A stretch of DNA of 64,000 nucleotides from sequence record DRR378314_251. One strand, given 5' to 3'. This document shows positions 25,410 through 52,470 of this stretch, one piece after another. Position 1 is the stretch's first letter; each line of letters begins with the position of its first letter. Below the pieces are notes generated by a model. The model was not told the origin of the DNA, searched no databases, and saw only the letters and a program-made list of their open reading frames with translations. A program made the position numbers and the translations under genes.

Positions 25410-25426
25410 GGTGCGCATACATCACC
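25410..25426. promoter_or_regulatory. LysR-type operator 1 (GGTGC-N7-TCACC)
   Basis: T-N11-A dyad between divergent genes; GCATC half-site ends 21 bp downstream. Confidence 0.75.
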
Positions 25427-25497
25427 AGCCAATCGACAGTTTGCATCACTCAAGAACAAAATCCGGTGCTAGCCTCAAAGCCGGAGGAAAATAAATT

Positions 25498-28400
25498 ATG
25501 CGAATCCGTCACTTCATCCTCGCTGTCGCATGCAGTCTTCCGGGCGTTTTGTGCACAGCCAATGCCCAGACTAACGAGACAGAGACTGAACCGAAAGTCG
25601 TCACACTCGAGCTTACAGAAGGCACCTGGATGAGCCTGGATGTAAGTCCTGATGGCGAAACCATCGTCTTCGACCTGCTGAATGATATCTATTCGATGCC
25701 CTCCACTGGGGGCACGGCCATCGCAATTCACGATGGATCCGTGACCCAACGCAGCCCTCAATTCAGTCCTGACGGTCAGTTCATCACGTACCTGAGCGAT
25801 CAGAGCGGCGCAGACAATGTCTGGATATCGAAGGCCGACGGAACCGACGCTAGACAGATCACGCATGAAACACATGCCATGGTCGCCGGCCCGGCCTGGT
25901 CCTCTGATGGAAAGTCCATCGCAAGTGTAATTACCTATTCAGACATATTCCGTGTCCGAAATTCTGAAATTCACCTGTACGGCATTGATGACGGTTCAGA
26001 AGAAATTGTCGTACCTCCGCCGACGAGCGGAAAAGACGTACAGGAACCACGCTTCGCGCCGAATGGCCGTCACCTCTATTACACAGAGAGAATCGGCGGA
26101 GATCACTACGTTTACATGAACACAGGTTTGAAGAATTTCGCGATCAAGCGGTTGGATCTCGAAACCGGCGAAAGAAAGAAAGCCATTTCCGGTTTCGGGG
26201 GCGCCTCAACACCGCAGATCTCGCCGAATGGAAAATCCATCGCTTTCATCCGTCGCTTGGGCGCAAAGACAGTTCTGTTCGTAAAAGATCTGGAGTCCGG
26301 ATATGAAGAGCCGATCTATCAGGATCTAGGGCGCGACTTGCACGGAGATTACCTGCCACAGGAGCATTATTACCCCTCCTTCGACTGGTTTCCTGACAGC
26401 CATCACATTGCGATCTGGGCAAAGGGAAAGCTGCTGAAGATCGACACCCTGTCTGCTCTGGCGGAAGAGATACCGTTTAATCTGAAAGCGCGCCATGAAT
26501 TGCAACCAGCAATTCGGGTGAAGCAGGACCTCGCGCCAGACCAGGTTCAAGTCCGCACAATTCGCCAACTCGCCCCGAATCCGGACGGTAGCTCGATACT
26601 CTTCCGTGCAATGGGCAAGATCTGGGAAGTCGGGTCCAGCTCTCCTTCACGGCCTTCTCGCTTGACGAATTCCATGGCCATGGAATCTGAACCAACATGG
26701 TCCCCCGACGGAAAACAAATCGCATATGTGAGCTGGCAAGACCAAACCGGTAGCAAGTTGATCCTGCGGCATGCCGATACAGGCCAAGAGACGGTTCTTG
26801 CAGAAAGCCATGCGGTCATTCGAGAGCCGCAGTTCTCAAATTCTGGAGAACTGATCGCCTATCGGATCATGAGTCCCGACACAGCTTTCAACGCACCAGG
26901 GCCCGAGACAGGCATTTATCTCCTGAACCTGGCCGGAGGTAGTCCGGAATACCTGACGGAAGCCTCGGGCCTGTCAGTGTTCTCTCCCGATGATAGCAGA
27001 CTCTTCTTTCTTGGAGAGCCGTCCTCATACGCGAAACGATCATCTGTGTTGATGAGCATCACGCTCGACGGCAGCGACGTACAGGAACATGCCATTTCTG
27101 AAATGGCAGACATCCGGGACTTCTCCTTGAGTCCTGACCTGAAGTGGCTGGCGTTCAAGTCCAACAATCGCCCTTACGTCATGCCGTTCGACGTCAAGCC
27201 GGCCCCCGTAACCATCAACACGCCGGACAATGGCTCGGCTCGTCTGCTGAGTGATATTGGTGGATACGCTTTCGGATGGTCGAAAGACTCGTCCACACTC
27301 TTCTGGACGATGGGCGCAGAAATTCTTTCAACCACGCCTGCCGACAAGAGCGGCACGCCTCACTCCCTGACAATCAATATACAGCTGCCGACAGACAAGC
27401 CTGAAGGCATAGTTGCGTTCGTTGGCGGCAAGATCGTTCCGATCGAAGGCGATGTTATCAAGAACGGAACTGTTGTTGTTGAAGGAAACCGGATTGTCGC
27501 CGTCGGTCCGCGACGCAAGGTCAAGATTCCGAAAGACGCCACCCGGATCGACATCAAGGGCAAAGTCTTGATGCCTGGCTTCTTCGATGCGCATGGCCAT
27601 ATCGAATGTTGCTTCGACGCCGGCACTATGCCTCAGCAACACCCAACGCGTCTTGCCGCCCTCGCCTATGGCGTCACCACGAACTTCGATCCGTACTCAG
27701 AGGACCTTACTTCCTACGAAAGCGGTGAGATGACTATGACGGGAGAATTGGTCGGTCCGCGCTGGCTCAAATCTGGTCAGGTTGTTCACGGAGTGAAAGG
27801 ACGCACCGCTGGTGTGTATCACCCACTTGCCTCTTTGGATGATGCTCGAAACGTCCTGAAGCGCCGCAAAGCGCTCGGCCCGTCAATTCTGAAAAGCTAC
27901 AAGCTGTCGACTAGAGCTCAGCGTCAGCGACTTCTCCAGGCGGCGAGAGAATACGACTTCATGGTTGATGGCGAAGGCGCCGGACAATTCTACACAAACA
28001 TCGGGATGATCCTCGATGGACACACCAATCTTGAGCACAACCTTCCGGTTGCCACCTATTATGATGATCTTCAGCAGCTGATTGCTGCATCCGACGTCTC
28101 AATGACGCCAACACTGATCGTGACGTTCGGTGAGCTGTTTGGCGAAAATTACATCTACGAAAACGAAGACTCCTGGTCCCAGGACAAAGTCAAAGCCTTC
28201 ATTCCCGACGTAAACAATGCGTATAACCCTATCACGGGCGATAGTGGCACACCCCTGCATGTTCGCTGCATGCATTCGATCCATGTATCAGATGAAATCT
28301 ACGACATCGGATTCCGCTCAGTCGGTCGCTCCTTGACGAAACTGGCAAAAGCCGGCGCAACGGTGAATGTTGGCTCTCACGGTCAGGTTTCCGGGCTCGC

Positions 28401-28737
28401 CATGTACTGGGAGATGCTGCTCTTTGCGGAAAGCGGCATGGAACCGATGGAAATCCTGCGAGCCGCTACGATCAATGGCGCAAAGACCTACGGGCTTGAC
28501 CATCAACTCGGGTCAATCACCCCCGGCAAGCTCGCAGACCTCATTGTACTTGACGAGGATCCGACCGAGGACATCCGCAATGCCAACAGCGTTCGGTATA
28601 CAATGGTCAATGGGCGCCTCTACGATTCCCATACCATGAACGAAATCGGAAATTATAACCGTCCCCGGAGCAAATTCTATTGGGAAATGAAGCCAACAAA
28701 CGGAATAGATTGGAAATCCACATGGTCCGGCGAATAA
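25498..28737 (+). CDS. Secreted amidohydrolase with N-terminal TolB/PD40 beta-propellers (paralog 1)
   Basis: Signal peptide; repeated SPDG blades; PGFFDAHGH, KSY, EH, GSHGQ, GKLADL. Confidence 0.9.
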   Translation: MRIRHFILAVACSLPGVLCTANAQTNETETEPKVVTLELTEGTWMSLDVSPDGETIVFDLLNDIYSMPSTGGTAIAIHDGSVTQRSPQFSPDGQFITYLSDQSGADNVWISKADGTDARQITHETHAMVAGPAWSSDGKSIASVITYSDIFRVRNSEIHLYGIDDGSEEIVVPPPTSGKDVQEPRFAPNGRHLYYTERIGGDHYVYMNTGLKNFAIKRLDLETGERKKAISGFGGASTPQISPNGKSIAFIRRLGAKTVLFVKDLESGYEEPIYQDLGRDLHGDYLPQEHYYPSFDWFPDSHHIAIWAKGKLLKIDTLSALAEEIPFNLKARHELQPAIRVKQDLAPDQVQVRTIRQLAPNPDGSSILFRAMGKIWEVGSSSPSRPSRLTNSMAMESEPTWSPDGKQIAYVSWQDQTGSKLILRHADTGQETVLAESHAVIREPQFSNSGELIAYRIMSPDTAFNAPGPETGIYLLNLAGGSPEYLTEASGLSVFSPDDSRLFFLGEPSSYAKRSSVLMSITLDGSDVQEHAISEMADIRDFSLSPDLKWLAFKSNNRPYVMPFDVKPAPVTINTPDNGSARLLSDIGGYAFGWSKDSSTLFWTMGAEILSTTPADKSGTPHSLTINIQLPTDKPEGIVAFVGGKIVPIEGDVIKNGTVVVEGNRIVAVGPRRKVKIPKDATRIDIKGKVLMPGFFDAHGHIECCFDAGTMPQQHPTRLAALAYGVTTNFDPYSEDLTSYESGEMTMTGELVGPRWLKSGQVVHGVKGRTAGVYHPLASLDDARNVLKRRKALGPSILKSYKLSTRAQRQRLLQAAREYDFMVDGEGAGQFYTNIGMILDGHTNLEHNLPVATYYDDLQQLIAASDVSMTPTLIVTFGELFGENYIYENEDSWSQDKVKAFIPDVNNAYNPITGDSGTPLHVRCMHSIHVSDEIYDIGFRSVGRSLTKLAKAGATVNVGSHGQVSGLAMYWEMLLFAESGMEPMEILRAATINGAKTYGLDHQLGSITPGKLADLIVLDEDPTEDIRNANSVRYTMVNGRLYDSHTMNEIGNYNRPRSKFYWEMKPTNGIDWKSTWSGE

Positions 28738-29600
28738 TTTCAACTACGTGCTTGGCATTGATGGCGATGACAGTTTCCGCCTGTTCGCAACCCGCAGGTT
28801 CGCCTTCTGGTGCAGAAATGGTGGTTATACCTGCAGCCAGTTTCGAGATGGGCGAGACAATCGACTACGGATATGGAGAGATCGATGGACCCCGACACAC
28901 CGTCGATATTCAAAGGTCTTTTGCGTTAGCCAAGACAGAAGTGACGGTAGGCGAGTTCAGACAGTTCGTTGAAGCAACAGGGCACCTGTCCGAAGGCAAA
29001 TGCAACATCTACACAGACGAAAAATCCTGGCACATCGATCCTGACCGAAACTGGGAGCACCCCGGATTTGTGCAAGCCGAAGATCATCCTGTCGTCTGCG
29101 TTAGTTGGGAAGATACACAAGCATACGCATCCTGGCTGACGCAACAAACCGGGGAAGCGTATCGCCTACCGTCGGAAGCAGAATGGGAATACGTGGCGAC
29201 ATTTGGCGACATTGAAGGCGAGGACGGCGTCGTCGGGCACGACGAAGCAAATATCGGCTTGGTTGACTGCTGCGGCGGCAAAGCGGAAGGACGGGATGTC
29301 TGGATTGAAACCGCCCCCGTCGGGAGTTTTCCTTCCGACAAGTTCGGCATCCACGACATGCGAGGAAACGTCTGGGAGTGGCAAGCTGACTGTCATCAAG
29401 ACAACTATGTGGGCGCGCCTGTCGATGGCTCCGCACGCACAGAATGCGACACACCGGACAAACGCTCAATTCGTGGCGGCTCCTACGGCGATGCTGGCGA
29501 CTATCTGTCACCGAGATATCGACTGCCCGGACCTAAGGATCAGGGATATTTCACTGTTGGCTTCCGGTTGGCCCACGACGTTCGCGAACCGCAACGGTGA
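28722..29600 (+). CDS. FGE-sulfatase (SUMF1/PvdO-like) domain lipoprotein
   Basis: Lipobox VSAC; HPVVCVSWED, RLPSEAEWEY, DMRGNVWEW, RGGS, GFR; FGE catalytic Cys pair absent; start ATG 28722. Confidence 0.85.
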   Translation: MVRRIISTTCLALMAMTVSACSQPAGSPSGAEMVVIPAASFEMGETIDYGYGEIDGPRHTVDIQRSFALAKTEVTVGEFRQFVEATGHLSEGKCNIYTDEKSWHIDPDRNWEHPGFVQAEDHPVVCVSWEDTQAYASWLTQQTGEAYRLPSEAEWEYVATFGDIEGEDGVVGHDEANIGLVDCCGGKAEGRDVWIETAPVGSFPSDKFGIHDMRGNVWEWQADCHQDNYVGAPVDGSARTECDTPDKRSIRGGSYGDAGDYLSPRYRLPGPKDQGYFTVGFRLAHDVREPQR

Positions 29601-29612
29601 CCTGAGCGCACC
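29596..29612. promoter_or_regulatory. LysR-type operator 2 (GGTGA-N7-GCACC)
   Basis: 77 nt upstream of the NylC-like gene; GCATC at +21. Confidence 0.75.
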
Positions 29613-29689
29613 AGCACATCAATATATCGCATCTATGTCGGCAAAGCTGCTTTCACGTATGCTGGCCTCCAGAATCGAGGAACAAGATT

Positions 29690-31135
29690 ATGAACACCCG
29701 TACCAAGCTGAAGTGTAACCCCGTTCCCGCTATTGGAATGGCATTGGCAGCGACACTTATGACGGCTTGCGCGACCCTTCCTCAATCAGCGCTGGCAGAT
29801 ATGCCGCCCGTCGGTCAGGACGAACTTCCAGCCCTGATAAATGATGGCTTTGACAGCGAGACGGCGCTGACCTTCGATTGGCCGATGCTGGAGATTGGAA
29901 CGGGCCAGTACGAAGATGGGCCAACAGGCCTGACGGTTCTGAAATTTGGAAAAAAAGTGAACGCTGCCGTCGATTCTCGCGGTGGTGGACCAGGCACCGT
30001 CAACGCCAAATATCTGGAACTAGGATACAATCAGCCCGAACTCGACGCCATCGTCCTGTCTGGTGGCTCCTGGTATGGTCTGGAAGCGGTGACAGCCGCC
30101 AATACTGCGTTGCTCGATGACAAGTATCGTGGCGGTCGCTGGGACAATGTGGGCCTCGTTGTCGGTTCCATCATCTACGATTTCGGCGGTCGGCGCCTCA
30201 ACGAAATCTATCCCGACAAACGTCTTGCCCAACTGGCATTGAGGGCTGCAGAACCGGGCGTATTTCCAAATGGCGCCTATGGCGCAGGTCGTTCTGCCAT
30301 GAATGGCGGCATTTTCGGCTGCAACGCACGCTCCGGACAAGGCAGCGCGTTCCGCCAGATTGGTGATGTGAAGATTGCGGTATTCACCGTCGTCAACGCT
30401 CTTGGCACGGTGACCGACCGTGAAGGTAATGTCGTCGCTTGTCACAAGGGAAGCAACTGGCCGGAAAACCTGAAAGCGACAGATCTGATGCGGGCGGCAC
30501 CAGATAGCGTGCAGCCCGGCTGGAATGGCGACGAGGAGTCACCAGGCGCTGAGCGAAAGAACACAACGATCAGCGTTGTCGTTACCAACCGCTCAATGAC
30601 GCCAGCCGAGCTGCAACGACTTGCTGTTCAGGTACACACATCGATGGCGCGAGGTATTCAACCTTTCGCAAGCGAATTTGACGGTGATGTACTCTACGCT
30701 GTGTCGACGAATGAGGTGGAGACCGGCCCCGGCGAAACCATCCCGAGCATGGAGATCGGCGTCGCCGCGTCTGAACTGATGTGGGATGCCATCCTCGCCG
30801 CAGTGCCTGCGCATCAGGTAACTCAGCCAGACCCAGATCCGGAACTCGTTCTCCCAGCCCGCACGCTGGAAAAGTACGCCGGAACCTATCGCTTCAGCCA
30901 TCTGGCTGAATTAACGGTTAGCGTGGAGAATGGCGCGCTCGTCGCATCTGCAACGGGAGAGCGTGATGTCTTTCAGGTCAAAAAGGGCACTCCCCGTCCC
31001 CTCTTGGCCGCCACCCGAGACACATTCACTGTCGAGCGTGGCCGCTACCCGTTCAGCATTCAGTTTGCGGGTGACGAGATCATAATCAATCCAGGCCGCT
31101 GGCAGCAGACCGGATACCGCGTTTCGGCTGATTAG
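29690..31135 (+). CDS. NylC-like Ntn-hydrolase (peptidase S58/DmpA family) lipoprotein with extra C-terminal domain
   Basis: YEDGPTG, VDSRGG, YGLEA, IYDF, YPDK, GQGSAFR, N|TTIS autocleavage site, [26 protein letters not shown] are collinear with recalled NylC; lipobox MTAC. Confidence 0.85.
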
Positions 31136-31170
31136 ACGCTCAAGACACTCATAAATATCAGGACAGCAAA

Positions 31171-32349
31171 ATGACCAAGCACTCTGCCTTCAACTGGGCC
31201 GACGCCCTTTCGCTCGCTTCCGATCTGACTGAGGAAGAACGGTTTGTGCAAAAGACCGCTGCAGATTTTGCCGACAAACGCCTTCTGCCTGGAATTGTGG
31301 AAGCCAATCGGTCAGGTCATTTTGATCGCGAAATCATGCGGGAAATGGGCGCGCTCGGTCTGCTTGGGCCAACCCTGCCGGAAGAGTATGGCGGCGCGGC
31401 GGTCAGCCACGTAGCCTATGGTTTGGTCTCGCACGAAGTTGAAGCTGTTGATTCAGGCTACCGATCTGCCTTGAGCGTTCAATCCTCGCTCGTCATCCAC
31501 CCTATTCATGCCTATGGCGACGAACAACAACGCCAACGCTGGCTGCCTGGTCTTGTGTCAGGTGATCTCGTTGGCTGTTTCGGCCTGACTGAACCCGACC
31601 ACGGTTCGGACCCCGGCAATATGGCCACGCGGGCGGTAAAGACGGATGGCGGATACCGCCTGAACGGTGCAAAGATGTGGATCACGAACAGCCCGATCGC
31701 CGATGTCATGGTGGTCTGGGCGAAACTCGACGGAGTCATTCGCGGGTTTGTGCTTGAACGCGGCATGAGTGGCCTGTCGACGCCCGAAATCAAAGGTAAG
31801 CTCGCGCTGCGCGCATCCATCACCGGTGAAATTGTCATGGACGATGTGTTCGTCCCTGAAGAAAACCTGCTCCCGAACGCCCGTGGACTGTCAGGCCCGT
31901 TTGGCTGCTTGAACAAGGCACGTTTCGGAATTGCCTGGGGCGCACTCGGCGCGGCTCGCACCTGTTGGACCGCTGCGCGCGACTACACGCTGGATCGAAA
32001 GCAGTTTGGCCGCCCGCTCGCCGCGAACCAGCTGATACAACGCAAACTAGCTGACATGCAGACTGAAATTTCTATTGGTTTGCAAGCCTGTCTGAAGGTG
32101 GGCCGCCTGCTGGATACTCATCAGGCAACGCCGGAAATGGTTTCGCTGATCAAGCGCAATAGTGCTGGGAAGGCGCTGGAGATCGCCCGGACATCGCGCG
32201 ACATGCATGGTGGCAACGGTGTTTCGGATGAGTTCCACATCATGCGGCACATGTGCAATCTGGAAGCCGTGAATACCTATGAAGGCACTCACGACGTGCA
32301 CGCCCTCATTCTTGGGCGGGCTCAAACCGGTATCGCGGCTTTCAACTGA
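31171..32349 (+). CDS. gcdH: Glutaryl-CoA dehydrogenase
   Basis: [63 protein letters not shown]. Confidence 0.9.
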
Positions 32350-32350
32350 T

Positions 32351-33592
32351 ATGGCACAGGCACTCGCGGGTCTTCGTGTGTTGGATCTCAGCCGTGTGCT
32401 GGCAGGCCCCTGGGCCACACAGCTCTTGGGTGACCTCGGGGCTGAAATCATAAAGATTGAGCGCCCTGGTCGCGGCGACGACACACGCAGCTGGAGCCCT
32501 CCATTCCAGTATGGATCAGACCCAAACACCCGCGAAGCTTCCTACTTCTTGAGCGCAAACCGCAACAAGAAATCAGTGTGCGTGGATATCACACGAGTGG
32601 AAGGCCAGAATATCATCCGGCAACTGGCAAAGACCAGCGACGTTCTGATCGAGAATTTCAAGACGGGAAGCCTCGCCAAATATGGCCTCGATGCTGAAAC
32701 GCTCTGCGCCGAGAATCCCGGGTTGATCTATTGTTCAATTACCGGCTTCGGACAGACAGGCCCATATGCGAGCCAGCCGGGTTACGATCTGTTGATTCAG
32801 GCAATGGGCGGCTTGATGAGCATTACGGGCGTTCCAGACGGAGAACCGGGGGCCGGCCCGATGAAGGTCGGGGTGGCACTCGTCGATATCCTTACCGGTC
32901 TGTACGCCGCCAACGCCGTTCAGGCGGCGCTACGGCATCGCGACAAAACCGGCGAAGGGCAAGCAATCGACATCTCGCTTCTGGACAGCCTTGTCGCTGC
33001 CCTGGCCAACCAGTCCCAAGGCTTCCTTGCAACGGGCCAGAGCCCGTCCCGTATGGGGAACGCACACCCCAGCATCGCACCCTATGATGTGTTTAAAACC
33101 GGCGACGGACACATCGTGCTGGCGGTTGGCAATGACGACCAGTTTGAAGATCTCTGCAGCCGCCTCGGCCTCTCAGAGCTATCCAAGGATCCCCGCTTCC
33201 GGTCGAACGCCAATCGCGTGCAAAATCGCACGGTTCTCACCGACATTCTGCACAATACATTGCAGACCGCGACGACATCTCACTGGCTGGACACTCTGGA
33301 CGGATGCAAGGCTCCTGTAGGCCCTGTGAATAGAGTCGGTGACGTATTTGCAGACCCTCATATTCAGGCACGCAATACTCGGATTACGCTACCGCACTCC
33401 AGTCTGGGCGACGTGTCGGGCGTCGCCTTTCCAGCGCGCCTCAGTCGCACTCCGGCGGAGTATGTATCGGCTGCACCAATTTTAGGCGAACATACCCAAG
33501 ATGTACTCAAGACTTTACTTGGATACTCAGATGAAGCACTGAGCGCACTCGGCACCGATGGTGTGATCAACACCCCGTCCGAAACAGACTAA
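32351..33592 (+). CDS. CaiB/BaiF class III CoA-transferase (glutarate CoA-transferase-like)
   Basis: LAGLRVLDLSRVLAGP, GDDTR.W, NRNKKS, ALVDILTG; directly follows gcdH; start ATG 32351. Confidence 0.9.
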   Translation: MAQALAGLRVLDLSRVLAGPWATQLLGDLGAEIIKIERPGRGDDTRSWSPPFQYGSDPNTREASYFLSANRNKKSVCVDITRVEGQNIIRQLAKTSDVLIENFKTGSLAKYGLDAETLCAENPGLIYCSITGFGQTGPYASQPGYDLLIQAMGGLMSITGVPDGEPGAGPMKVGVALVDILTGLYAANAVQAALRHRDKTGEGQAIDISLLDSLVAALANQSQGFLATGQSPSRMGNAHPSIAPYDVFKTGDGHIVLAVGNDDQFEDLCSRLGLSELSKDPRFRSNANRVQNRTVLTDILHNTLQTATTSHWLDTLDGCKAPVGPVNRVGDVFADPHIQARNTRITLPHSSLGDVSGVAFPARLSRTPAEYVSAAPILGEHTQDVLKTLLGYSDEALSALGTDGVINTPSETD

Positions 33593-33676
33593 TCAGCGAG
33601 ACTCCCCTGTCTGACTGGGTTTCGCAAGACTGTCGGAACCCATTTGTAAGACGTATGCACAACGACCGCACTGGCA

Positions 33677-33693
33677 GGTGCGCAATTCGCACC
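33677..33693. promoter_or_regulatory. LysR-type operator 3 (GGTGC-N7-GCACC)
   Basis: Perfect dyad 85 nt upstream of the TonB receptor; GCATC at +21. Confidence 0.8.
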
Positions 33694-33778
33694 ATGTGTC
33701 TCAATTTTGGCATCTGCCCAATATTCTGTTTGTCCGTCTTACTTCCCTCTAATGTAGCAAAAGCGAGCGGGAGAAGAC

Positions 33779-35914: not shown

Positions 35915-35934
35915 TACGCGTAAACTGCACAATC

Positions 35935-35963
35935 GTTGATAACCGGACACTCCGGTTATCAAC
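35935..35963. repeat. Perfect inverted repeat (13-bp arms)
   Basis: GTTGATAACCGGA-cac-TCCGGTTATCAAC. Confidence 0.85.
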
Positions 35964-35982
35964 AGGCAACAAGACATAGACT

Positions 35983-36017
35983 GACCCGGGCGAAACTATC
36001 GTCCGGGTCTTTTGTTT
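35983..36017 (+). terminator. Rho-independent terminator after TonB receptor
   Basis: GACCCGGGCGA/TCGTCCGGGTC stem then TTTTGTTT. Confidence 0.8.
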
Positions 36018-36021
36018 GCCC

Positions 36022-36056: not shown

Positions 36057-36092
36057 TTCCGGTCTGATTGCCGACAAGGGCGAGGCATCAGG

Positions 36093-41751: not shown

Positions 41752-41887
41752 TTCCTGCTCCCCATTAGAGTGCGACCCATCATGTCGACAGGATGCGAGA
41801 TCCTGTACGTGTCTTGTAGGCTTTTCCGCACCTGTAACTTGACCACGCGCCGCCAGCATTGGCGAAGGGGCCTAGGACGCACTAATA

Positions 41888-41904
41888 GGTGCCTTTTTCG
41901 CACC
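41888..41904. promoter_or_regulatory. LysR-type operator 4 (GGTGC-N7-GCACC)
   Basis: Perfect dyad in divergent region, 88 nt upstream of the PepSY gene; GCATC at +21. Confidence 0.8.
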
Positions 41905-41992
41905 ACCTCGCTCACGCTTCGCATCTGTCGGATGTCAAAACCTGTTTGCCATACTGACCAAAGGCAATTCGCCGCCGACGGCTGGAGGTCGC

Positions 41993-43072: not shown

Positions 43073-43195
43073 ATGATCAGCTCTGAATTCGGGCGCGATG
43101 CATCAGCAGCCCAACTGGACTCACCAGAAAACTTGACTTCATCCCAGCGACCGCCGTCAATTGCGAATGAGAAGCGTAACAACAAGGAAGCATTC

Positions 43196-44182: not shown

Positions 44183-45330
44183 CCCAGTGCATCCGCAGCC
44201 GCGTTGAAGAAATCATTGTCCAGAATCGCTTCAGCGAACTTCGGCTTTGACCGGCAGCTGAGGACCGTCAGAACAATGTTCCGGGTTGGGTTGATGTAGA
44301 TGTACTGCCCGAATATGCCGCGGGCGCTATACGCGCCTTCCGAAAAATCTCCATCTCGGCTTGGCACTGGCCACCACATGTAGCCATAGTTCAGCGGCGC
44401 ATCGCCCGCCATGCGCGGCTCGGTCGCTTCGACGAACCAATTGTCAGGCACGACAGACTCGCCATCGATGACGCCCTTGTTCAATGCGAACAGGCCGAGG
44501 CGCGCATAGTCGTGCAATGTCGCGCAGATTCCACTTCCGGCCACTTCCAGGCCATCAGGCGCTTCAAGCCACCATGCGGCATCTGAATCCATACCAAGTC
44601 GCGACCACATTTTTTCCGAACAATAATCTGCCAGCCACTTCCCTGTCGCTGCTTTGACCAACGCACCGACAACATGGGTTTCACCCGTGCTGTAGTTCCA
44701 GACCTGTCCTGGCTCAGCGATACGTGGCAACGACGCCATGAGATCCATAATTGCACCTGGTTGCTGGGCCACCTGCAAGTCCAACATGACGCGGCGCTCA
44801 GAACCGGGCGTCGTATGGGTATCATCCCATTTCACGCCAGACGTCATTTGAAGCAGGTGCCGGATGGAAACGCCATCATAGCCACTCCCAGACAGTTCCG
44901 GCATGTATTTTACAAGCTGGTCGTCCACACTGTCGATGTAGCCATCCTTGATGGCAGTACCGACCAATGTCGTTGAAACGGACTTGGCCATCGACATCGA
45001 CATCCAGCGCGTGTCGGCGTCAAATCCGCTCTCATGATATTCATGAACGATTTGGCCATCCTTGAGTGCAAGCAAGCCAACGAGGCGATTCCGGGACACA
45101 TAATCAAACAGATCGTAGGTGTCGCCATTTGTCGGGATAGCCAGATCCGTCAGGGTGTTCGCCGTCCGTGGCAGTTCACTTGGCGTACCGCCTGATTTTA
45201 TGATCCGCGTTGGAAAAATTTCGTGTGTTCGGGCAAACGTCCTCATCTGGACATCCGGCATCAACTGGCCAGCATATGCCGAAACGATGTCACCCAACTC
45301 AGGTGATTGTTGATCATAGGATTGCGTCAC
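44179..45330 (-). CDS. NylB-like serine hydrolase (class C beta-lactamase fold), no signal peptide
   Basis: SMAK (SxxK), LLQMTSG, NYST, RGIFGQ; probable GTG start at 45330 after AGGGAG. Confidence 0.85.
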   Translation of the reverse strand: MTQSYDQQSPELGDIVSAYAGQLMPDVQMRTFARTHEIFPTRIIKSGGTPSELPRTANTLTDLAIPTNGDTYDLFDYVSRNRLVGLLALKDGQIVHEYHESGFDADTRWMSMSMAKSVSTTLVGTAIKDGYIDSVDDQLVKYMPELSGSGYDGVSIRHLLQMTSGVKWDDTHTTPGSERRVMLDLQVAQQPGAIMDLMASLPRIAEPGQVWNYSTGETHVVGALVKAATGKWLADYCSEKMWSRLGMDSDAAWWLEAPDGLEVAGSGICATLHDYARLGLFALNKGVIDGESVVPDNWFVEATEPRMAGDAPLNYGYMWWPVPSRDGDFSEGAYSARGIFGQYIYINPTRNIVLTVLSCRSKPKFAEAILDNDFFNAAADALG

Positions 45331-45436
45331 AAAATTTCTCCCTGCTGGCATACCGAGTGCAATTGCCACGCGGTCAGTCTGCAAAAAACCTTACAGGTCC
45401 TCTGCGCGAGGCTCAGTTGCCAAGGAGTTGCGCTCC

Positions 45437-45453
45437 GGTGCCCTGCCCGCACC
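45437..45453. promoter_or_regulatory. LysR-type operator 5 (GGTGC-N7-GCACC)
   Basis: Perfect dyad in divergent region, 82 nt upstream of the PaiB gene. Confidence 0.8.
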
Positions 45454-45535
45454 AGTGGAGAGGCATTTCGCGCCTCACATCGTGCGTTCATGACAGGAAA
45501 GGTGGTAGGACAAATCAATAAGGAGCGCGATCAGA

Positions 45536-46180
45536 ATGCCGAATGAATCTTCTTCGTGGAACATGTATATTCCCAAAGCCTATCGGTCAGACGACCCTGT
45601 TTCGATCATCGACAGATTCCCATTCGGCCAATTGGTCACCAGTCATGAGGGATTTCCTTACGCGACAGCGGTGCCGATGTATCTTGATGTGCAGCCTGAT
45701 GGCGCCACGCAACTCGTCGGGCATCTCGCGAGACATAACCCCCACGCAGGAACGTTGGCCAAGGGGCAACCGGCGCTCGCCATCTTCACCGGACCGAACG
45801 CCTATATCTCTGCCAGCTGGTATGAGGAACGCCCGACCGTACCGACGTGGAACTACATAGCTGCGCAGGTTCGCGGCGTGTTGACCCCTGTTGATGATGA
45901 CGACGAACAACTCAGCATCATGCGAACAACCATTCGCCGCAGCGAGACAGACTCCAGCTCCAACTGGATGATGGAGCACGCTCCAGACGGCAAGGTCGAA
46001 ACCCTCCTGCCCCATATCAGATCATTCCGTATTGCGATCAGCCAGATGGATGCCGTGACCAAATTAAGCCAGACGCATCCCGTGGGCGATCAGACGCGCG
46101 TTGCAGACGCATTGGAAGCACGTGGGAAAGTCGCGGATCTGGAGATCGCGAGATACATGCGTGATCTTCTAGCGAACTAA
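45536..46180 (+). CDS. PaiB family (split-barrel heme/FMN-binding) protein
   Basis: MYIP, GHLARHNPH, YISASWY, VPTWNY, KLSQ. Confidence 0.9.
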   Translation: MPNESSSWNMYIPKAYRSDDPVSIIDRFPFGQLVTSHEGFPYATAVPMYLDVQPDGATQLVGHLARHNPHAGTLAKGQPALAIFTGPNAYISASWYEERPTVPTWNYIAAQVRGVLTPVDDDDEQLSIMRTTIRRSETDSSSNWMMEHAPDGKVETLLPHIRSFRIAISQMDAVTKLSQTHPVGDQTRVADALEARGKVADLEIARYMRDLLAN

Positions 46181-46205
46181 CCAGATGGTGATGTTTCCAC
46201 CCCTC

Positions 46206-46222
46206 GGTGCTGAAACCGCACC
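46206..46222. promoter_or_regulatory. LysR-type operator 6 (GGTGC-N7-GCACC)
   Basis: Perfect dyad 78 nt upstream of the aminotransferase; TCATC at +21. Confidence 0.8.
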
Positions 46223-46300
46223 GGGCCCATCGGTTTAGTCATCTTCTCCCAAATCGGGTGGCGATCCAACATGTGATCAAAGACATGAAAGGGACGCGCA

Positions 46301-47674
46301 ATGGCGATCGTACAACGAAACACGGCACAGTGGCAGGCACTCGATGCCTCGCATCACATCCATCCATTTTGTGATCCGAAATCACTGGCCGAACGCGGTG
46401 TGCGTGTCATTACCAGCGCTGACGGCTGCTATGTGACAGACAGTGACAACAATCGCATCCTGGATGGCATGGCCGGTCTATGGTGCGTGAATGTCGGCTA
46501 CGGTCGTCAGGAACTTGTCGATGTTGCCACCCAGCAAATGGAACGACTGCCGTTCTACAACTCCTTCTTTCAGAGCTCCACGCCGAGCCAGATCGAACTG
46601 GCCCAAAAGCTGTCTGAAGTTGCGCCTGGCAATCTGAACCATTTCTTCTTTGCGAATTCCGGGTCTGAAGCAAACGACACAGTAATCCGCATGGCTCGCC
46701 ACTACTGGCACGTTCGCGGAAAGCCGAAGAAATACGCCTTCATCGGTCGAAATCTTGGCTATCATGGCAGCACACTGGCGGCGACGAGCCTCGGCGGCAT
46801 GAAGCACATGCATGACATGGGCTCATCCACGCTTCCCGGCTTTGAGCATATCATGGAGCCCCACTGGTATGCTCACGGAGGGAATATGACCCCGGAGGAG
46901 TTCGGACTGCGCGCAGCACAAGCGCTTGAAGACAAGATCCTTGAGGTCGGTGCGGACAACATCGCCGCCTTCATCGGAGAACCTATCCAGGGTGCGGGCG
47001 GCGTCATCGATCCACCATCGACCTACTGGCCCGAGATTCAGCGCATCTGCCGCAAGCATGACATCCTGCTTGTATGTGACGAAGTCATCTGTGGCTTTGG
47101 GCGTCTGGGCGAATGGTTCGGATGTCAGTATTATGGTGTACAGCCTGACATCATGCCGATGGCGAAGGGCATGTCCTCAGGATACCTCCCTATTTCGGCT
47201 GTGGCCTTCAGCGATGAGATTTTTGAAACCCTCAATGAAGGCGGCCCGATCTCGCACGGCTATACTTATTCCGGGCATCCGGTCTCCTGCGCAGTTGCGC
47301 ATGCGAACATCAACATCATTGAGCGTGAAGGCCTCGTTGAGCGTGTCAAGGAAGACGTTGGCCCTTACTTGCACGAGCGCCTGCAGGAACTTGCTGCAAA
47401 ACACAAGATTATTGGCGAAGTCCGCGGCACAGGCTTGATTGCAGGCCTGCAACTCGTGAAGTCTCAGGAAGCCCGCGAACCGTTTACGGCCGAAGACAAC
47501 GCCGCCAACATTTGCCGCGATGCTTGCCTCGACAAGGGTCTGATCATGCGCGCGGTTGGTCAGTCGATGGTGATCTGTCCACCTCTCACGATCTCTCGCG
47601 AACAGATTGATGATATGATCCGTATGGCATCAGAAGGCTTGGCCGAAACATCTGCTCAGTTCGGAATTTCCTGA
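46301..47674 (+). CDS. Class III omega-amino acid/polyamine:pyruvate aminotransferase (SpuC-like)
   Basis: WQALDASHHIHPF, DGMAGLWCVNVGYGR, SGSEAND, DEVICGFGR, MAKG, HGYTYSGHP. Confidence 0.9.
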   Translation: MAIVQRNTAQWQALDASHHIHPFCDPKSLAERGVRVITSADGCYVTDSDNNRILDGMAGLWCVNVGYGRQELVDVATQQMERLPFYNSFFQSSTPSQIELAQKLSEVAPGNLNHFFFANSGSEANDTVIRMARHYWHVRGKPKKYAFIGRNLGYHGSTLAATSLGGMKHMHDMGSSTLPGFEHIMEPHWYAHGGNMTPEEFGLRAAQALEDKILEVGADNIAAFIGEPIQGAGGVIDPPSTYWPEIQRICRKHDILLVCDEVICGFGRLGEWFGCQYYGVQPDIMPMAKGMSSGYLPISAVAFSDEIFETLNEGGPISHGYTYSGHPVSCAVAHANINIIEREGLVERVKEDVGPYLHERLQELAAKHKIIGEVRGTGLIAGLQLVKSQEAREPFTAEDNAANICRDACLDKGLIMRAVGQSMVICPPLTISREQIDDMIRMASEGLAETSAQFGIS

Positions 47675-47675
47675 C

Positions 47676-49148
47676 ATGTCGGTCGATCTCGCACCTCCCT
47701 TGCCACAGACTGTTTCCTCCAACGCTCTGCTGAAACGGATTCTGCTTGAAACGCGGCTTGAACCAGCCGAGAACACATTCGATGTGCTCAACCCGGCCGA
47801 CGGTTCTATTGTCGCCCAGCTGCCGGATCTTGGTGCAGCAGAGACCGAACTGGCCGTTGAATACGCGCGGCAGGCTCAACCAGATTGGGCGTCCCGAACG
47901 GCGAAAGAACGCGGAGAAATTCTTCGCCGGTGGCATGACCTGATCCTGTCTAACGAACAAGAGTTAGGGGAAATCCTAACTCTCGAACAGGGGAAACCGC
48001 TTGCTGAGGCGCGCCGTGAGATCACCTTCAATGCGGGCTATATCGACTGGTTTGCCGAAGAAGCCAAACGCGCCTATGGCGATGTCATTCCGACCAGCGC
48101 CTCTAATCGCAGGCAAGTCGTCCTTAAACAGCCGATTGGTATCGTCGGCGCGATCACACCCTGGAACTTCCCCAGTGGAATGATTACGCGCAAGGCCGCA
48201 CCGGCTCTGGCAGCAGGCTGCGTAATAATCCTGAAGCCCTCCGATGAAACGCCTCTGTCCGCTCTTGCGCTCGAGTGCCTCGCGCGAGACGCGGGCTTCC
48301 CGGAAGGGGTCTTTCAAGTGATCCCGTCAAAAGACCCAGCACCGGTTGCAAACGTGCTGACGAGTCACCCACTTGTTCGGAAAGTCTCTTTCACGGGATC
48401 AACGCGTGTGGGCAAGTTGCTGATGCGGCAGAGCGCCGACACCATGAAACGCCTGTCTCTGGAGCTTGGAGGTAACGCGCCCTTCATTGTTTTTGAAGAC
48501 GCCGATATTGATGCCGCTGTCGCCGGCGCCATGGTTGCCAAGTTTCGCAACGCCGGGCAAACTTGCATTTGCGCAAACCGAATTCTTCTGCATACGGCAA
48601 TTCAGGACGAGTTCCTGTCCAAATTCCTCTCGGCTGCCGATGCCATGAATGTGACCGATGGATTCGATTCTTCTTGCGCAATGGGCCCGATGATCAACTC
48701 GGCTGCCAAGAACAAGGTGGCGGCCTTGGTGGACGACGCGCTAGCGAAAGGCGCGAAGCGCGCGACGCGCCGGCTGCCGGATAGTGACGGTACTTTTTTT
48801 CCGCCTACCATCCTGACTGGCGTGTCCGGTGATATGGATATCGCCCACACAGAGATATTCGGTCCGGTCGCACCTGTATTCACTTTTGATACGGATGCAG
48901 AAGCCATCGCCCTGGCAAACGACACGCCCTACGGTCTGGCTTCCTATTTCTGGACTCGGGACTATTCACGCGCCTGGCGCGTCTCAGAGCAATTGGAAGC
49001 CGGGATGATTGGCCTCAACGATGTGGCAATTTCCGGCGACTCCACACCGTTCGGCGGCATCAAGGAGTCAGGTGTCGGCCGAGAGGGCTCCCACTACGGT
49101 CTCGACGACTATCTGGAAATCAAATATGTCGCGATGGGGGGGATCTGA
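47676..49148 (+). CDS. NAD(P)-dependent succinate/glutarate-semialdehyde dehydrogenase (GabD/DavD-like)
   Basis: ITPWNFP, FTGST, LELGGNAP, FRNAGQTCIC, EIFGP, PFGGIKESG. Confidence 0.9.
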   Translation: MSVDLAPPLPQTVSSNALLKRILLETRLEPAENTFDVLNPADGSIVAQLPDLGAAETELAVEYARQAQPDWASRTAKERGEILRRWHDLILSNEQELGEILTLEQGKPLAEARREITFNAGYIDWFAEEAKRAYGDVIPTSASNRRQVVLKQPIGIVGAITPWNFPSGMITRKAAPALAAGCVIILKPSDETPLSALALECLARDAGFPEGVFQVIPSKDPAPVANVLTSHPLVRKVSFTGSTRVGKLLMRQSADTMKRLSLELGGNAPFIVFEDADIDAAVAGAMVAKFRNAGQTCICANRILLHTAIQDEFLSKFLSAADAMNVTDGFDSSCAMGPMINSAAKNKVAALVDDALAKGAKRATRRLPDSDGTFFPPTILTGVSGDMDIAHTEIFGPVAPVFTFDTDAEAIALANDTPYGLASYFWTRDYSRAWRVSEQLEAGMIGLNDVAISGDSTPFGGIKESGVGREGSHYGLDDYLEIKYVAMGGI

Positions 49149-50461
49149 TGATCCGGCCTCCCGTGTCTTTCTCCGCGCAAAATCTGAGATGGGCGTCTAT
49201 CACTCTGACTACGCTCATTCTCGCGGGATACTTGCCGGCATCCAGCGAAACACTGGGTGACGACGACACAGCCGCGATCATTGCTGAACTCCAGGAGATA
49301 ATTCGGGAACAAGATGCACGACTGGCCAGGCTGGAAGCCCAAATCGCTCAATCGCGGCCACACGATGTATCGCCAGTCATCCAGCCAATGGCTAATCCCG
49401 CTACCGCCCCAAATAATCTCCTGCTCAAGCCTGCTCAGCAAGGCACCTCCAAACTAAGCATCAATGGAGACCTTCGGCTCCGTTACGAGTACAACACGTC
49501 CGATGGCGACGCCCGCACGGACTCTCGCGGTGTGGCGCGAGGGCGTGTAGCAGCAATCTATACAGCGAACCCAACACTCGAATTCGGCGCCAGGCTCGTC
49601 ACCGGCGATCCGGATGATCCAAACTCCGCAGACGTATCTCTTTCTAATTTCAACGATGATTTGCAGGTCAGCCTGGACCAGATCTACGCCCGGAAAGTCT
49701 ATGGCGCTCTTACGCTTACTGGCGGCAAGTTCTCGAACCCCTTTCGCCGCACTGACCTTGTCTGGGACGGCGATGTGAACCCACAAGGGGTCGCCGGCCA
49801 ATATGATTTCGTTGATACCGAGACCAGCACCATCACAGGCCGCGCCCTATTCTTTCCGATTGAAAGATCCGTGGCGGCTGCTGACAGTACGGCATCAGGC
49901 CTCCAATTGACCCTTGACCAACAGTTTGGTGCGGGCTGGAGCATGGGCCTGGCGACTGGCTACTATGATTACGAGATCGAGGCCACTGATACGGCGAACA
50001 CAGGCGACACGCGCACCAACAGGCTCGACGGCGCTGGAGCCTATATCTCTGACTTTGACCTGTTCAATCTGATCGCCTCGATTACATATGACGGCCTTGG
50101 AGATCGTTGGCCTCTTCAACTCCAGGCCGATTATGTTCAGAATATCGGAGCTGACGACTTCAACACGGGCTATAATGTATCAGCGGCGCTTGGCCAATCT
50201 GCTGAAACCGGTGACTACCGCTTCAGTTATGGATATCATCAGGCGGAGGCCGATGCAGTCTTCGCGGCGTTTGCTCAAGACAACATATCATATGGCAGCA
50301 ACTATCTTCAGCACGCGGTGACCGCCTCTTACGTTCTGAACGATCACCTTACCCTGGATGCAGCGTTTTATGCATTCCGCGTCAAAGACATAGAACTGCT
50401 CCCACTGTCGACAGAAGATTGGCAGCAACGCCTGCGCCTGAATCTGATCGCCCGCTTCTAA
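49148..50461 (+). CDS. Putative outer-membrane porin
   Basis: Signal peptide, coiled coil, GDLRLRYE, GKFSNPF..LVWDGDVNPQG, terminal Phe. Confidence 0.75.
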   Translation: MIRPPVSFSAQNLRWASITLTTLILAGYLPASSETLGDDDTAAIIAELQEIIREQDARLARLEAQIAQSRPHDVSPVIQPMANPATAPNNLLLKPAQQGTSKLSINGDLRLRYEYNTSDGDARTDSRGVARGRVAAIYTANPTLEFGARLVTGDPDDPNSADVSLSNFNDDLQVSLDQIYARKVYGALTLTGGKFSNPFRRTDLVWDGDVNPQGVAGQYDFVDTETSTITGRALFFPIERSVAAADSTASGLQLTLDQQFGAGWSMGLATGYYDYEIEATDTANTGDTRTNRLDGAGAYISDFDLFNLIASITYDGLGDRWPLQLQADYVQNIGADDFNTGYNVSAALGQSAETGDYRFSYGYHQAEADAVFAAFAQDNISYGSNYLQHAVTASYVLNDHLTLDAAFYAFRVKDIELLPLSTEDWQQRLRLNLIARF

Positions 50462-50505
50462 CCTGCTTTTTTATCAACCGGCTGTTACTTCAAAGGATAG
50501 TTGAA

Positions 50506-51597
50506 TTGCGTATTGGTACCCCGAAAGAACTCAAGAACCGCGAATACCGTGTGGGGCTAACCCCGCAAGGCGCTCAGGAACTCATCCGTTCAGGACACTC
50601 AGTCTTTGTTGAAACTGGCGCTGGTGCGACGGTCGGATTTTCCGATGAGATATACGAATCCGTCGGCTGCACAATTTCTGCGTCTGCTGACGAATTGTTC
50701 GAAGACTCTGACATGATCATCAAGGTCAAGGAGCCACAGCCGGTCGAGATCGCCCGTCTGGAGCCTCGCCACACGCTGTTCACCTATCTTCACCTCGCTC
50801 CGGACCCGGAACAAACGCTGGGCCTTCTGAAGTCTGGTGCAACTTGTATCGCATATGAGACCGTGACTGACCGGTTTGGTCGTTTGCCTCTCCTTACTCC
50901 AATGAGCGAAGTGGCCGGTAGATTGTCCATCCAAGCCGGCGCCAAGTATCTCGAAATCTCGAATGGCGGCTCCGGGACTCTTCTTGGGGGCGTCACTGGT
51001 GTTGCACCCGGCAATGTTCTTGTCATTGGTGGTGGAGTCGCCGGGCGGAACGCGGCTGAAATGGCCGTCGGCCTCGGAGCGAATGTCACAATTCTGGATC
51101 GCTCGCTCGATCGGCTCCGCGAACTCGACATCATCTTTGGTGGCCGCGCCCGCTGCCTCTATTCAACCTCTGCGGCGATTGAGACAGCTCTGCAGACTGC
51201 AGACCTCGTGGTCGGCGCGGTGCTGCTTCCAGGCTCCGAAGCCCCGAAAGTGGTTTCAGCAGAACAAATTGCCATGATGAAACCCGGTTCGGTTGTTGTC
51301 GACATCGCCATCGACCAAGGCGGCTGTTTCGAAACCAGTCGTCCCACAACCCATGATGATCCGGTTTATGAAATTGGTGGTGTCATTCACTACTGTGTGA
51401 CGAATATGCCAGCCGCGGTCGCGCGCACATCAACCATCGCCCTGTCCAATGCCACACTGCCGTTTGCCATGGCACTTGCCAACAAAGGTACAGCGGAAGC
51501 AATTGCATCTGACCCTCACCTTGCGGGCGGTGTAAATGTGGCAGACGGAAAAATTGTTCATCCCGAAATCGTCGCAGCGATGACCGGGAAAATCTGA
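50506..51597 (+). CDS. ald: Alanine dehydrogenase
   Basis: RIGTPKELKNREYRV, KVKEP, FTYLHLA, PMSEVAG, DIAIDQGG, YCVTNMP; TTG start at 50506 after AAGGA. Confidence 0.94.
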   Translation: MRIGTPKELKNREYRVGLTPQGAQELIRSGHSVFVETGAGATVGFSDEIYESVGCTISASADELFEDSDMIIKVKEPQPVEIARLEPRHTLFTYLHLAPDPEQTLGLLKSGATCIAYETVTDRFGRLPLLTPMSEVAGRLSIQAGAKYLEISNGGSGTLLGGVTGVAPGNVLVIGGGVAGRNAAEMAVGLGANVTILDRSLDRLRELDIIFGGRARCLYSTSAAIETALQTADLVVGAVLLPGSEAPKVVSAEQIAMMKPGSVVVDIAIDQGGCFETSRPTTHDDPVYEIGGVIHYCVTNMPAAVARTSTIALSNATLPFAMALANKGTAEAIASDPHLAGGVNVADGKIVHPEIVAAMTGKI

Positions 51598-51622
51598 AAC
51601 ACTATATGAGGGAACACAGGAC

Positions 51623-52339
51623 ATGCGATCTGCATTGACTGCCGCAGCAATAGCAACCAGCGTCGCCCCCGCCGCTGAAGCGCAATCCCGCTCGGTCTTC
51701 GGTGAAGCGCGCATGTCCTCCTCTCTTCATGACCGCGGCGAACAACTCAGTGCAGAAACGCTTGAGCTTCTGCTGGGACTGGAGCAGTCCACCGCATTCG
51801 GCGCGGTCTACACGTCCATTTACCGCATCGACCCTATTGGCCCCACAGCAGGTGCCTTCGCATCTGAAACCGACTATTCGATCGGCGTCATCGTCGAAGA
51901 AGACACCTTCTCGGCAGACCTCTCCGCGAACTGGCTCACCTATCCAGGCAGTGAGGACGATTCGACACTGGAGTTGGCACTATCGATAGATATTGTTGGC
52001 ACCTTATCTCCAAACCTTTCAGCGTTCTATGATGCGCACACCAGTGACAAGGGATTTGAAGTGTCAGCAGGCCCCTTCGTTGAAATGGGAGCCTGGACGA
52101 CGAATTTGCGCGGCCGCGCGGGAATGGTCTCGATAGGAGATGGTTCCCCGAACCGCTCCTATGCAGGAATCGAAGTATCAAGCAGCCGCGCTGTTGCAGA
52201 CAATTGGGAGTTCGGCGTGCACGCATCCATTGATGCCGCAAACCGGGAAACGCTTTCAGCGAGTTTCAGGCAAGGCGAAATCGTTTCATTCGAACACCAA
52301 GGCGTTTCGGCCGGAATCTCACTCTCCTACACAAACTGA
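51623..52339 (+). CDS. Small beta-barrel outer-membrane protein (TorF-like)
   Basis: Signal peptide; RGEQLS, ETDY, TYPG motifs; alternating beta-strands. Confidence 0.55.
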   Translation: MRSALTAAAIATSVAPAAEAQSRSVFGEARMSSSLHDRGEQLSAETLELLLGLEQSTAFGAVYTSIYRIDPIGPTAGAFASETDYSIGVIVEEDTFSADLSANWLTYPGSEDDSTLELALSIDIVGTLSPNLSAFYDAHTSDKGFEVSAGPFVEMGAWTTNLRGRAGMVSIGDGSPNRSYAGIEVSSSRAVADNWEFGVHASIDAANRETLSASFRQGEIVSFEHQGVSAGISLSYTN

Positions 52340-52374
52340 GCGGCTACACTGCCGGAGCGTCTATTGCCCTCTCT

Positions 52375-52391
52375 GGTGCCTGACGGACACC
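52375..52391. promoter_or_regulatory. LysR-type operator 7 (GGTGC-N7-ACACC)
   Basis: 79 nt upstream of second NylB-like gene; degenerate second site GATGC-N7-TCCTC shifted by 21 bp. Confidence 0.72.
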
Positions 52392-52470
52392 ATTCGATGC
52401 GCTATTGTCCTCTTTCCAAAGAAATTTCTTGTGCCGCACTATAAGCAGATTGAAACAGAGGACGGTATCG

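Follow-up and report, generated by a model that had tools for sequence, protein, structure and literature searches.

A predicted LysR-type regulon built on a dyad with a fixed downstream half-site, and its proposed role in desferrioxamine-type siderophore catabolism

Desferrioxamines are siderophores made of amide-linked N-hydroxycadaverine/succinate repeats, and they are chemically close to nylon oligomers. By analogy, the desferrioxamine monomer, with its free amine and carboxyl ends, would resemble the 6-aminohexanoate dimer that is cleaved by NylB. Azospirillum (Niveispirillum) irakense degrades desferrioxamines by amide hydrolysis, according to the accessible text of two reports (PMC10866069; PMC11800396). 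A study of a 95-member panel of NylC homologues describes their native function as undetermined and, in its accessible part, the members as not lying near homologues of NylA or NylB (PMC11601465), and the available text on NohD, which dehydrates N-hydroxylamines, calls its native role obscure (PMC12576811). Here we analyze a 64,000-nucleotide stretch of sequence record DRR378314_251 (the window, numbered from its first letter), whose closest named relatives are Hyphomonas and Henriciella and in which a first-pass annotation had noticed seven LysR-type sites. Our comparative analysis suggests, with a probability of roughly 0.57, that these sites define a LysR regulon driving the catabolism of desferrioxamine-type siderophores. 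The pathway combines known families, and no description of the combination was found in a literature search that covered few subscription journals.

Dyads of the form GGTGC-N7-GCACC were found again at 25410, 29596, 33677, 41888, 45437, 46206 and 52375, four perfect and three with a single mismatch, each at the place where the first-pass annotation had put it. The gaps from dyad to start codon were re-measured as 71, 77, 85, 88, 82, 78 and 79 nt, the last start being ATG 52471, and the pentamers ending at +21 read GCATC four times and GCGCC, TCATC and TCCTC once each; both sets of values agree with those first given. In what follows, scores in bits come from a matrix trained on 62 distant sites only, and comparison genomes carry G numbers. 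Sites 3 (33677..33714, upstream of a TonB receptor) and 6 (46206..46243, upstream of a transaminase operon) score 34.1 bits each, with perfect dyads followed by GCATC and TCATC, respectively, on the plus strand. Also on the plus strand, site 1 (25410..25447; GGTGC-N7-TCACC with GCATC at 25443-25447) scores 22.0 bits forward and 11.8 in reverse and is kept in G001, G511, G527 and G428; site 2 (29596..29633; GGTGA-N7-GCACC with GCATC; 25.0 bits) owes its sole mismatch to the TGA with which the FGE gene before it stops at 29600, and the dyad at this position is perfect in the relatives G511 and G527; and site 7 (52375..52412; GGTGC-N7-ACACC with TCCTC; 26.0 bits), upstream of a second serine hydrolase gene, stays with its gene in locus L051. 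Sites 4 and 5 serve divergent promoters and are given no strand. Site 4 (41867..41925; 32.2 and 23.4 bits in the two directions) has a perfect dyad at 41888-41904, GCATC at 41921-41925 and a mirror GCCCC at 41867-41871; site 5 (45416..45474; 28.3 and 29.8 bits), between the nylB-like and paiB-like genes, has a perfect dyad at 45437-45453, GCGCC at 45470-45474 and a mirror GCAAC at 45416-45420, the mirror often being a perfect GCACC in relatives. Dyads 1, 4 and 5 thus lie between divergent genes, which had been overlooked, and the mirror half-site is good at 4 and 5 and weak at 1, where it faces a divergent lipoprotein gene. An eighth match, at 23816, was excluded, as it falls within a LuxR response-regulator open reading frame (ORF), has no half-site and scores 4.8 bits.

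Allowing at most one mismatch, the window contains 8 matches against 2.67 expected, and none of 100 shuffles reaches 8 (the largest gives 7), which by itself is modest evidence. The genome-wide scan proposed in the first-pass annotation was run on two relatives, G001 and G527, and in the complete genome G527 the perfect dyads are clustered at the cassette, with six of the eight lying within 21 kb around the orthologous genes. The 3.6 Mb of G001, the nearest genome, contain 4 perfect dyads, as many as a backwards control, against 4 within 13 kb in the window. The appearance of sites without a LysR gene in G001 was traced to an assembly break, contig C62 stopping 30 bases past site 2, so that the absence of LysR from this genome is uninformative either way. 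Among the named relatives, dyads and half-sites persist and spacers change. The 62 distant metagenome loci, which were fetched by LysR alignment (LysR 44-58% identical) and are partly redundant, hold 44 perfect dyads versus 5 in the control over 595 kb; 36 distinct perfect dyads from these loci offer 72 flanks, of which 29 have a half-site at offset 21, and no other offset between 8 and 30 accounts for more than 3. The resulting matrix has the consensus Y-GGTGC-N7-GCACC-R-N7-C-N4-TTgGCATC-T, and the dyads, the matrix and the offset of 21 together bear out the earlier description of a T-N11-A recognition dyad with a weaker second site downstream. Matrix scores are circular for the training loci and independent for the window, G527, G428, G444, other close relatives and the paralogues. 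In the window, the seven sites and two reverse readings take ranks 1-9 (22.0-34.1 bits), followed by a match of 12.8 bits, and the maximum over 30 shuffles is 14.9. Judged by those matrix columns that were unused in choosing the training sites, five of the seven sites rank within the best 0.4% of positions, and the other two at 3% and 10%. Nothing above 13 bits precedes the H-NOX, GNAT or FecIR modules, for which the absence of a site had been reported by eye.

The candidate reader of these sites is a GcvA-like LysR-type regulator (43196..44182, plus strand, ATG 43196) with HTH_1 and LysR substrate-binding domains. It is the sole regulator found in the cassette and its orthologue travels with the motif, which is consistent with the role of cluster regulator first assigned to it. 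No dyad directly precedes lysR in the window, where transcription of the gene would either continue into it from site 4 or start at a separate promoter; in the genomes that give lysR a promoter to itself (G304, G493, G498, G767, G774 and G777), a dyad is found immediately in front of the gene. In G493, G498, G304 and Pacificimonas pallii, the genes stand in a different order, and the motif has gone with them to the new promoters, including that of LysR itself. The orthologue occurs in 8 of 262 Hyphomonadaceae genomes and in 1 of 401 sampled Alphaproteobacteria, counts that set G424 and G342 aside as paralogues; the LysRs of these two genomes (39-44%) were rejected as orthologues because they fall outside the cassette clade, have other neighbors and lack any site of at least 15 bits. 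Full-motif matches number 3-7 per genome in the eight Hyphomonadaceae carriers versus 0-4 in the other 254. All four Azospirillaceae genomes examined, which had been fetched via the hydrolase and not via LysR, have both the orthologue and the motif, and a Sinorhizobium plasmid with a hydrolase homologue showed neither an annotated LysR nor a site in the 31 kb seen. The cassette LysRs form one supported clade comprising 24 of 31 rows (96/95). The window protein scores 191.7 against the 288-bit cut-off of the GcvA model, and there are no gcv genes in the cassette. All of this makes it very probable, as far as sequence comparison can tell, that one GcvA-like LysR reads all sites and forms a regulon of about twenty genes.

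The architecture of the promoters is in line with activation. A -10-like hexamer peaks 58-63 nt past the dyad start, in 15 and 19 of the 62 distant sites against 0-7 in 15 other bins, which puts the centre of the dyad near -64 and makes the half-site span about -39 to -35, as estimated from this peak. A dyad near -64 with a second site abutting -35 is the standard layout of LysR activators, and the geometry read here is that of such an activator. We thus propose that the LysR would bind the 19-bp dyad Y-GGTGC-N7-GCACC-R centred near -64, would also contact the degenerate second site C-N4-TTgGCATC-T, 21 bp on and abutting the -35 region, and, with inducer, would activate about ten transcription units, one dyad serving both directions at divergent promoters. 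A sigma-54 promoter reading was dropped, as inspection by eye shows that the GC of the half-site is not preceded by a GG at a distance of twelve bases. With consensus motifs, a weak test, no Fur or Irr box was seen in the cassette, and one poor Fur-like match lies at 23419. RNA from four runs gave low-depth contigs, some spanning promoter DNA, from which neither start sites nor expression could be read. Half-sites on both sides of divergent dyads bring minus-strand units into the predicted regulon, namely 38491-41751 (with the POT and beta-helix genes) and 44179-45351, and probably 24876-25337. The first-pass annotation had taken the sites to set the boundaries of the cluster; the sites do delimit the cassette, but minus-strand units had been omitted, and the edges now lie at about 24876 on the left and about 53664 on the right. 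Taken alone, the regulation is an ordinary, textbook LysR regulon.

The gene content suggests what such a regulon could be for. A TonB-dependent receptor (33779..35914, plus strand; domain match, not a FoxA orthologue) would import the compound, and a PepSY-TM membrane protein (41993..43072, plus), a putative ferri-siderophore reductase matching 7abw (E 3e-8), which we take to be FoxB, would help strip iron. A peptidase S58/NylC-like Ntn hydrolase with an export signal (29690..31135, plus), proposed as endo-amidase, would cut the amide links to N-hydroxy-N-succinylcadaverine-sized pieces; its best solved relative is NylC (E 6e-58), whose N/T autocleavage site and DxD motif are kept, with Gly where NylC has the Lys of 'AGKV'. 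Two accessory exported beta-propeller and amidohydrolase proteins (25498..28737, plus, domain match; 38491..41751, minus, start codon chosen by eye) would perhaps assist it, and a POT-family peptide:H+ symporter (37013..38452, minus; domain and model match) would take up the resulting pieces. From these, a beta-lactamase-fold serine hydrolase without export signal (44179..45351, minus; NylB E about 1e-26, SxxK kept) would release succinate and N-hydroxycadaverine; among solved structures it is closest to PIB-1 of P. aeruginosa (PDB 8RLJ, E 1e-89), a protein described as a beta-lactamase, and this PIB-1/NylB-like subfamily may have a metabolic amide-hydrolase role. A PaiB/PF04299 protein (45536..46180, plus), homologous to NohD and the piperazate synthases, has His64, Thr104 and Lys176, with Ala66 at the HP2-equivalent position, and, of its 17 orthologues, all keep the haem His and the catalytic Thr and 15 keep the Lys. 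This haem enzyme would dehydrate the N-OH amine to an imine that yields ammonia and 5-aminopentanal. A class III aminotransferase of the putrescine/polyamine:pyruvate type (46301..47674, plus; PRK07480 above cut-off) and a GabD-like semialdehyde dehydrogenase (47676..49148, plus; just under the succinate-semialdehyde dehydrogenase cut-off) would lead on to glutarate. Breakdown would be completed by a family III CoA-transferase (32354..33592, plus; best model succinate-glutarate CoA-transferase, below cut-off, E 3e-148) and a glutaryl-CoA dehydrogenase (GCDH)-like acyl-CoA dehydrogenase (31171..32349, plus), so named by likeness and context, no NCBIfam cut-off being passed. Alanine dehydrogenase (50419..51597, plus; above cut-off, with the longest ORF given and the true start probably about 30 codons later), which appears to be transcribed from site 6, would regenerate pyruvate. 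Complete desferrioxamine catabolism would call for both an N-hydroxy-amine dehydratase and an exit through C5 glutarate. We propose N-hydroxycadaverine-succinate siderophores of the desferrioxamine type as the substrate, a proposal to which we give somewhat better than even odds.

This idea had been set down before an orthologue of the S58 hydrolase surfaced in the known degrader N. irakense (WP_154667358.1). Genome G767 encodes that protein at 100% and carries the core cassette with four motif sites: one site is followed by the S58 hydrolase (58%), the NylB-like hydrolase (54%), POT (59%) and the transaminase (53%), and a second by a TonB receptor; on another contig, a site lies between a GabT-like gene and LysR (53%), and a further one precedes GabD (52%) and PaiB (50%). 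An MFS transporter gene stands between lysR and the gabD site (G767:C7:17740-19299, L169) and is not there in G774, G777 and G759, in which the core cassette is contiguous. A full-length hydrolase orthologue (at least 72%) was found in 5 of 130 Azospirillaceae, of which the context count covers four (G772 is left out), and in none of the 69 genomes of g57, a genus that includes G057 (16S 97% identical to that of Azospirillum sp. B510). At the species level, the cassette is thus present in the N. irakense-linked genome and rare among family relatives. Winkelmann is said to have found, in 1999, that among azospirilla the activity is confined to A. irakense, which would agree with this distribution.

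More widely, in 23 distant loci of at least 12 kb, transaminases recur 18 times, the receptor 17, GabD 15, the NylB-like hydrolase 13, S58 12, POT 10, PaiB 10, PepSY 9, the CoA-transferase 8 and GCDH 6. These are undercounts (LysR itself is seen in 16 of the 23), and those for transaminase and receptor include distant homologues. Nearly every cassette that is seen in full has the PaiB/NohD homologue in its minimal core. Clustering of the unassigned ORFs returned mostly shadow frames.

A number of observations weigh against the reading as a desferrioxamine regulon and temper its probability. On the regulatory side, one member of the LysR clade, L125, is without any site, and paralogue loci in G777 (29 bits) and Azospirillum brasilense (20 bits) bear look-alike sites. 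The N. irakense match is weakened by the occurrence of the hydrolase in 4 of the 16 genomes from the genus of G767, which puts a chance match within the genus at 25%, and G767 itself, tied to N. irakense by a protein match, is only presumed to correspond to the strain with the tested phenotype. The cassette regions of G767 contain no PepSY, glutarate genes or amidohydrolases, and, with the paralogue as query, propeller-amidohydrolases were not found in the four Azospirillaceae carriers; GCDH lies elsewhere in these carriers, without a site in G767, G774 and G777. The TonB receptors of G767 and the window are only 26% identical, and neither shows full-length similarity to FoxA, matches being confined to the plug (E 1e-8 to 1e-11). 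The Thr/Lys pair and the HP2 Ala are common across PF04299 and do not single out hydroxylamine substrates. In the accessible text of a review, hydroxamate groups 'remained intact' in earlier bacterial studies, which fits poorly with the NylB and PaiB steps. Microbulbifer sp. CNSA002 is given as a non-degrader in the part of the source available, and a LysR homologue is present in other Microbulbifer species, which were the ones checked. Finally, the beta-helix and FGE proteins are unexplained by desferrioxamine.

Much of this would be accommodated if the same regulon acted on another amide of diamines or omega-amino acids, such as acyl-polyamines, citrate-diamine siderophores, polyamine conjugates or peptide-like antibiotics, the N. 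irakense match being coincidental. The transaminase, GabD, the second, GabT-like transaminase of Niveispirillum and the glutarate genes fit any cadaverine or putrescine derivative, the receptors are unlike FoxA and differ between carriers, the PaiB residues are family-wide, and the beta-helix, FGE and amidohydrolase genes find no explanation in desferrioxamine. Such a substrate, however, leaves unexplained both the PaiB/NohD homologue in the minimal core and the presence of the cassette in a known degrader against a background of 5/130, and we regard it as a serious though unlikely alternative. We consider it improbable that the sites are read by another GcvA/GcdR-like paralogue, or that the LysR is mainly a repressor. 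P. putida GcdR binds a similar repeat, AGTGA-N7-TCACT, in the accessible text of the report (PMC6667623), and the H[AT]VxSRH helix also occurs in near paralogues, two of which have the look-alike sites mentioned above; yet the sites are concentrated at the cassette, with few outside it, they directly precede LysR in genomes where the gene has a separate promoter, the -10 element is spaced as in an activator, and the best LysR paralogue in the nearest genome is only 31% identical. At G777:C1:13148 (L171), the 29-bit site stands before a transaminase-GabD-LysR paralogue cluster, and its reader could be the paralogue or the cassette LysR. Selection of a nylon-oligomer degradation system by plastic pollution, with equivalents of nylB, nylC, nylD and nylE, is more doubtful still: NylC and NylB homologues do lie beside an omega-transaminase and a semialdehyde dehydrogenase, and many NylC homologues hydrolyse nylons in vitro in the accessible part of the panel study (PMC11601465), but the orthologues are 40-55% different and reshuffled across lineages, from which we infer that the cassette long predates nylon, the downstream genes indicate C5 glutarate and not C6 adipate, and GC content is flat, with no island. 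A side activity on nylon is likely. Chance palindromes, to which the modest window count (8 vs 2.67, largest shuffle 7) might point, are refuted by the independent matrix, the cross-lineage conservation and the fixed +21 offset, and their probability is negligible.

The remaining cassette genes are less readily placed. A DUF4440-like small predicted lipoprotein (24876..25337, minus; Pfam match below cut-off) is encoded divergently from site 1 and accompanies the cassette. The FGE-sulfatase-domain predicted lipoprotein (28722..29600, plus; PvdO-like below cut-off) is fused to the S58 hydrolase in P0223 (754 aa), which supports the view that 28722-29600 and 29690-31135 are functionally linked in the window. 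A right-handed beta-helix predicted lipoprotein (36093..37013, minus; domain match) gave generic matches only in an atlas search. On the plus strand there follow a putative porin (Porin_5; 49148..50461; domain match), an exported protein that has no Pfam match and is listed for its conservation in close relatives (51623..52339), and a second, lineage-restricted beta-lactamase-fold serine hydrolase with an N-terminal anchor (52471..53664; domain match). In G493 and G304, a small gene, Lrp-like by eye, is divergent from alanine dehydrogenase; the window gene has no such neighbor. In the metagenome-assembled genome G444, amidohydrolase 2 is split into two overlapping ORFs (G444:C17:86763-89994), by a frameshift or an assembly error. 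A module adjoining the cassette in G428 (G428:C5:55343-68954, L041-L042) comprises an AraC regulator, a propeller-amidohydrolase (30%), a TonB receptor, an alpha/beta hydrolase, a second PaiB (27%), a PepSY-TM protein and two small amidohydrolases, with no dyad listed; G444:C17:62497-70484 is similar. This side module may serve another hydroxamate class, and the association of PaiB, PepSY, receptor and hydrolase suggests a recurring design.

Outside the cassette, 991-18351 looks like housekeeping from its translations (MucR-like, hemA, NAD kinase, phoB-phoU-pst, hslVU and trigger factor). Between 18675 and 24013, a CsgG-containing minus-strand operon is divergent from H-NOX, a PAS histidine kinase and a LuxR response regulator; this module has no motif site and was not seen adjoining the cassette in G527, G428 and G511. 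In these same three genomes, the weak GNAT gene (24228-24851), also without a site, adjoins the left edge of the cassette. To the right, the motif is also missing from 53810-62370, a distinct uptake module that encodes an ECF sigma factor, FecR, a pair of related TonB receptors and a glycerophosphodiester phosphodiesterase.

By delineating a conserved pathway, the regulon opens the genetics of siderophore catabolism, and the roles that NylC-like and PaiB-like enzymes have in nature, to direct testing. If the proposal is true, it names genes for bacterial desferrioxamine use, so far a phenotype without genes in the accessible literature; it gives a natural role to NylC-like hydrolases, relatives of nylon-degrading enzymes, and a purpose to PaiB/NohD dehydratases. 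It would identify removers of strong iron ligands in seawater and soil, with a bearing on iron cycling and on desferrioxamine B addition experiments, and would offer a source of exported polyamide hydrolases and a possible biosensor regulator. More tentatively, and at slightly less than an even chance, the cassette may be the complete, regulator-defined gene set for desferrioxamine-type catabolism across soil and marine Proteobacteria, with nylon hydrolases of the NylB/NylC type descending from enzymes that act on natural N-hydroxylated polyamides of this kind, PaiB/NohD proteins disposing of siderophore N-hydroxy-amines, and marine Hyphomonadaceae with PepSY-TM acting as a sink for iron-bound ferrioxamines.

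Several described systems resemble parts of this locus. The window LysR is GcvA-like, as are the members of the GcvA/GcdR group (E. coli GcvA, PDB 8y6u; P. putida GcdR), and its T-N11-A dyad is close to the published GcdR repeat, both having a 7-bp spacer, a likeness at the level of the sites; a literature search for GcdR-type sites led back to GcdR itself. The second site abuts -35 in both, and the window targets include GCDH and the glutarate CoA-transferase. The differences are that the window regulon comprises seven dyads and about 20 genes, versus one operon, and that its regulator is divergent neither from a target nor from GCDH, which in G767 is outside the regulon. With the Arthrobacter NylB/NylC system, the window shares a NylC-type Ntn hydrolase, a NylB-fold serine hydrolase, an omega-transaminase and an aldehyde dehydrogenase. 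The Arthrobacter nylon-oligomer system also has NylD and NylE. The window NylC homologue, in contrast, is exported and has a C-terminal extension, no NylA-type amidase was seen in the window, and the cassette, which is ancient and chromosomal, adds a TonB receptor, POT, PaiB and glutarate genes. Relative to NohD and the piperazate synthases (PF04299), the window PaiB shares the haem His, Thr and Lys and, as in NohD, the HP2 Ala, residue positions having been mapped by motif; it is only distantly similar to NohD (E about 1e-22), and its N-terminus reads MYIP (generic PaiB-like) where NohD has MHVF, so that the H2/F4 residues of the NohD cluster are not matched and we claim only that it would work like NohD. 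It also differs in its setting, a regulon for catabolism in which neither a hydroxylase nor an NRPS (non-ribosomal peptide synthetase) was seen. The known desferrioxamine degraders, with the A./N. irakense hydrolase and the Mesorhizobium loti serine protease, use amide hydrolysis for growth, as is proposed here. In the accessible text, those systems are characterized by phenotype and enzyme activity with no genes named. Degradation is reported there for the iron-free form only; in the window, the additional PepSY-TM protein might open up the iron-bound form as well.

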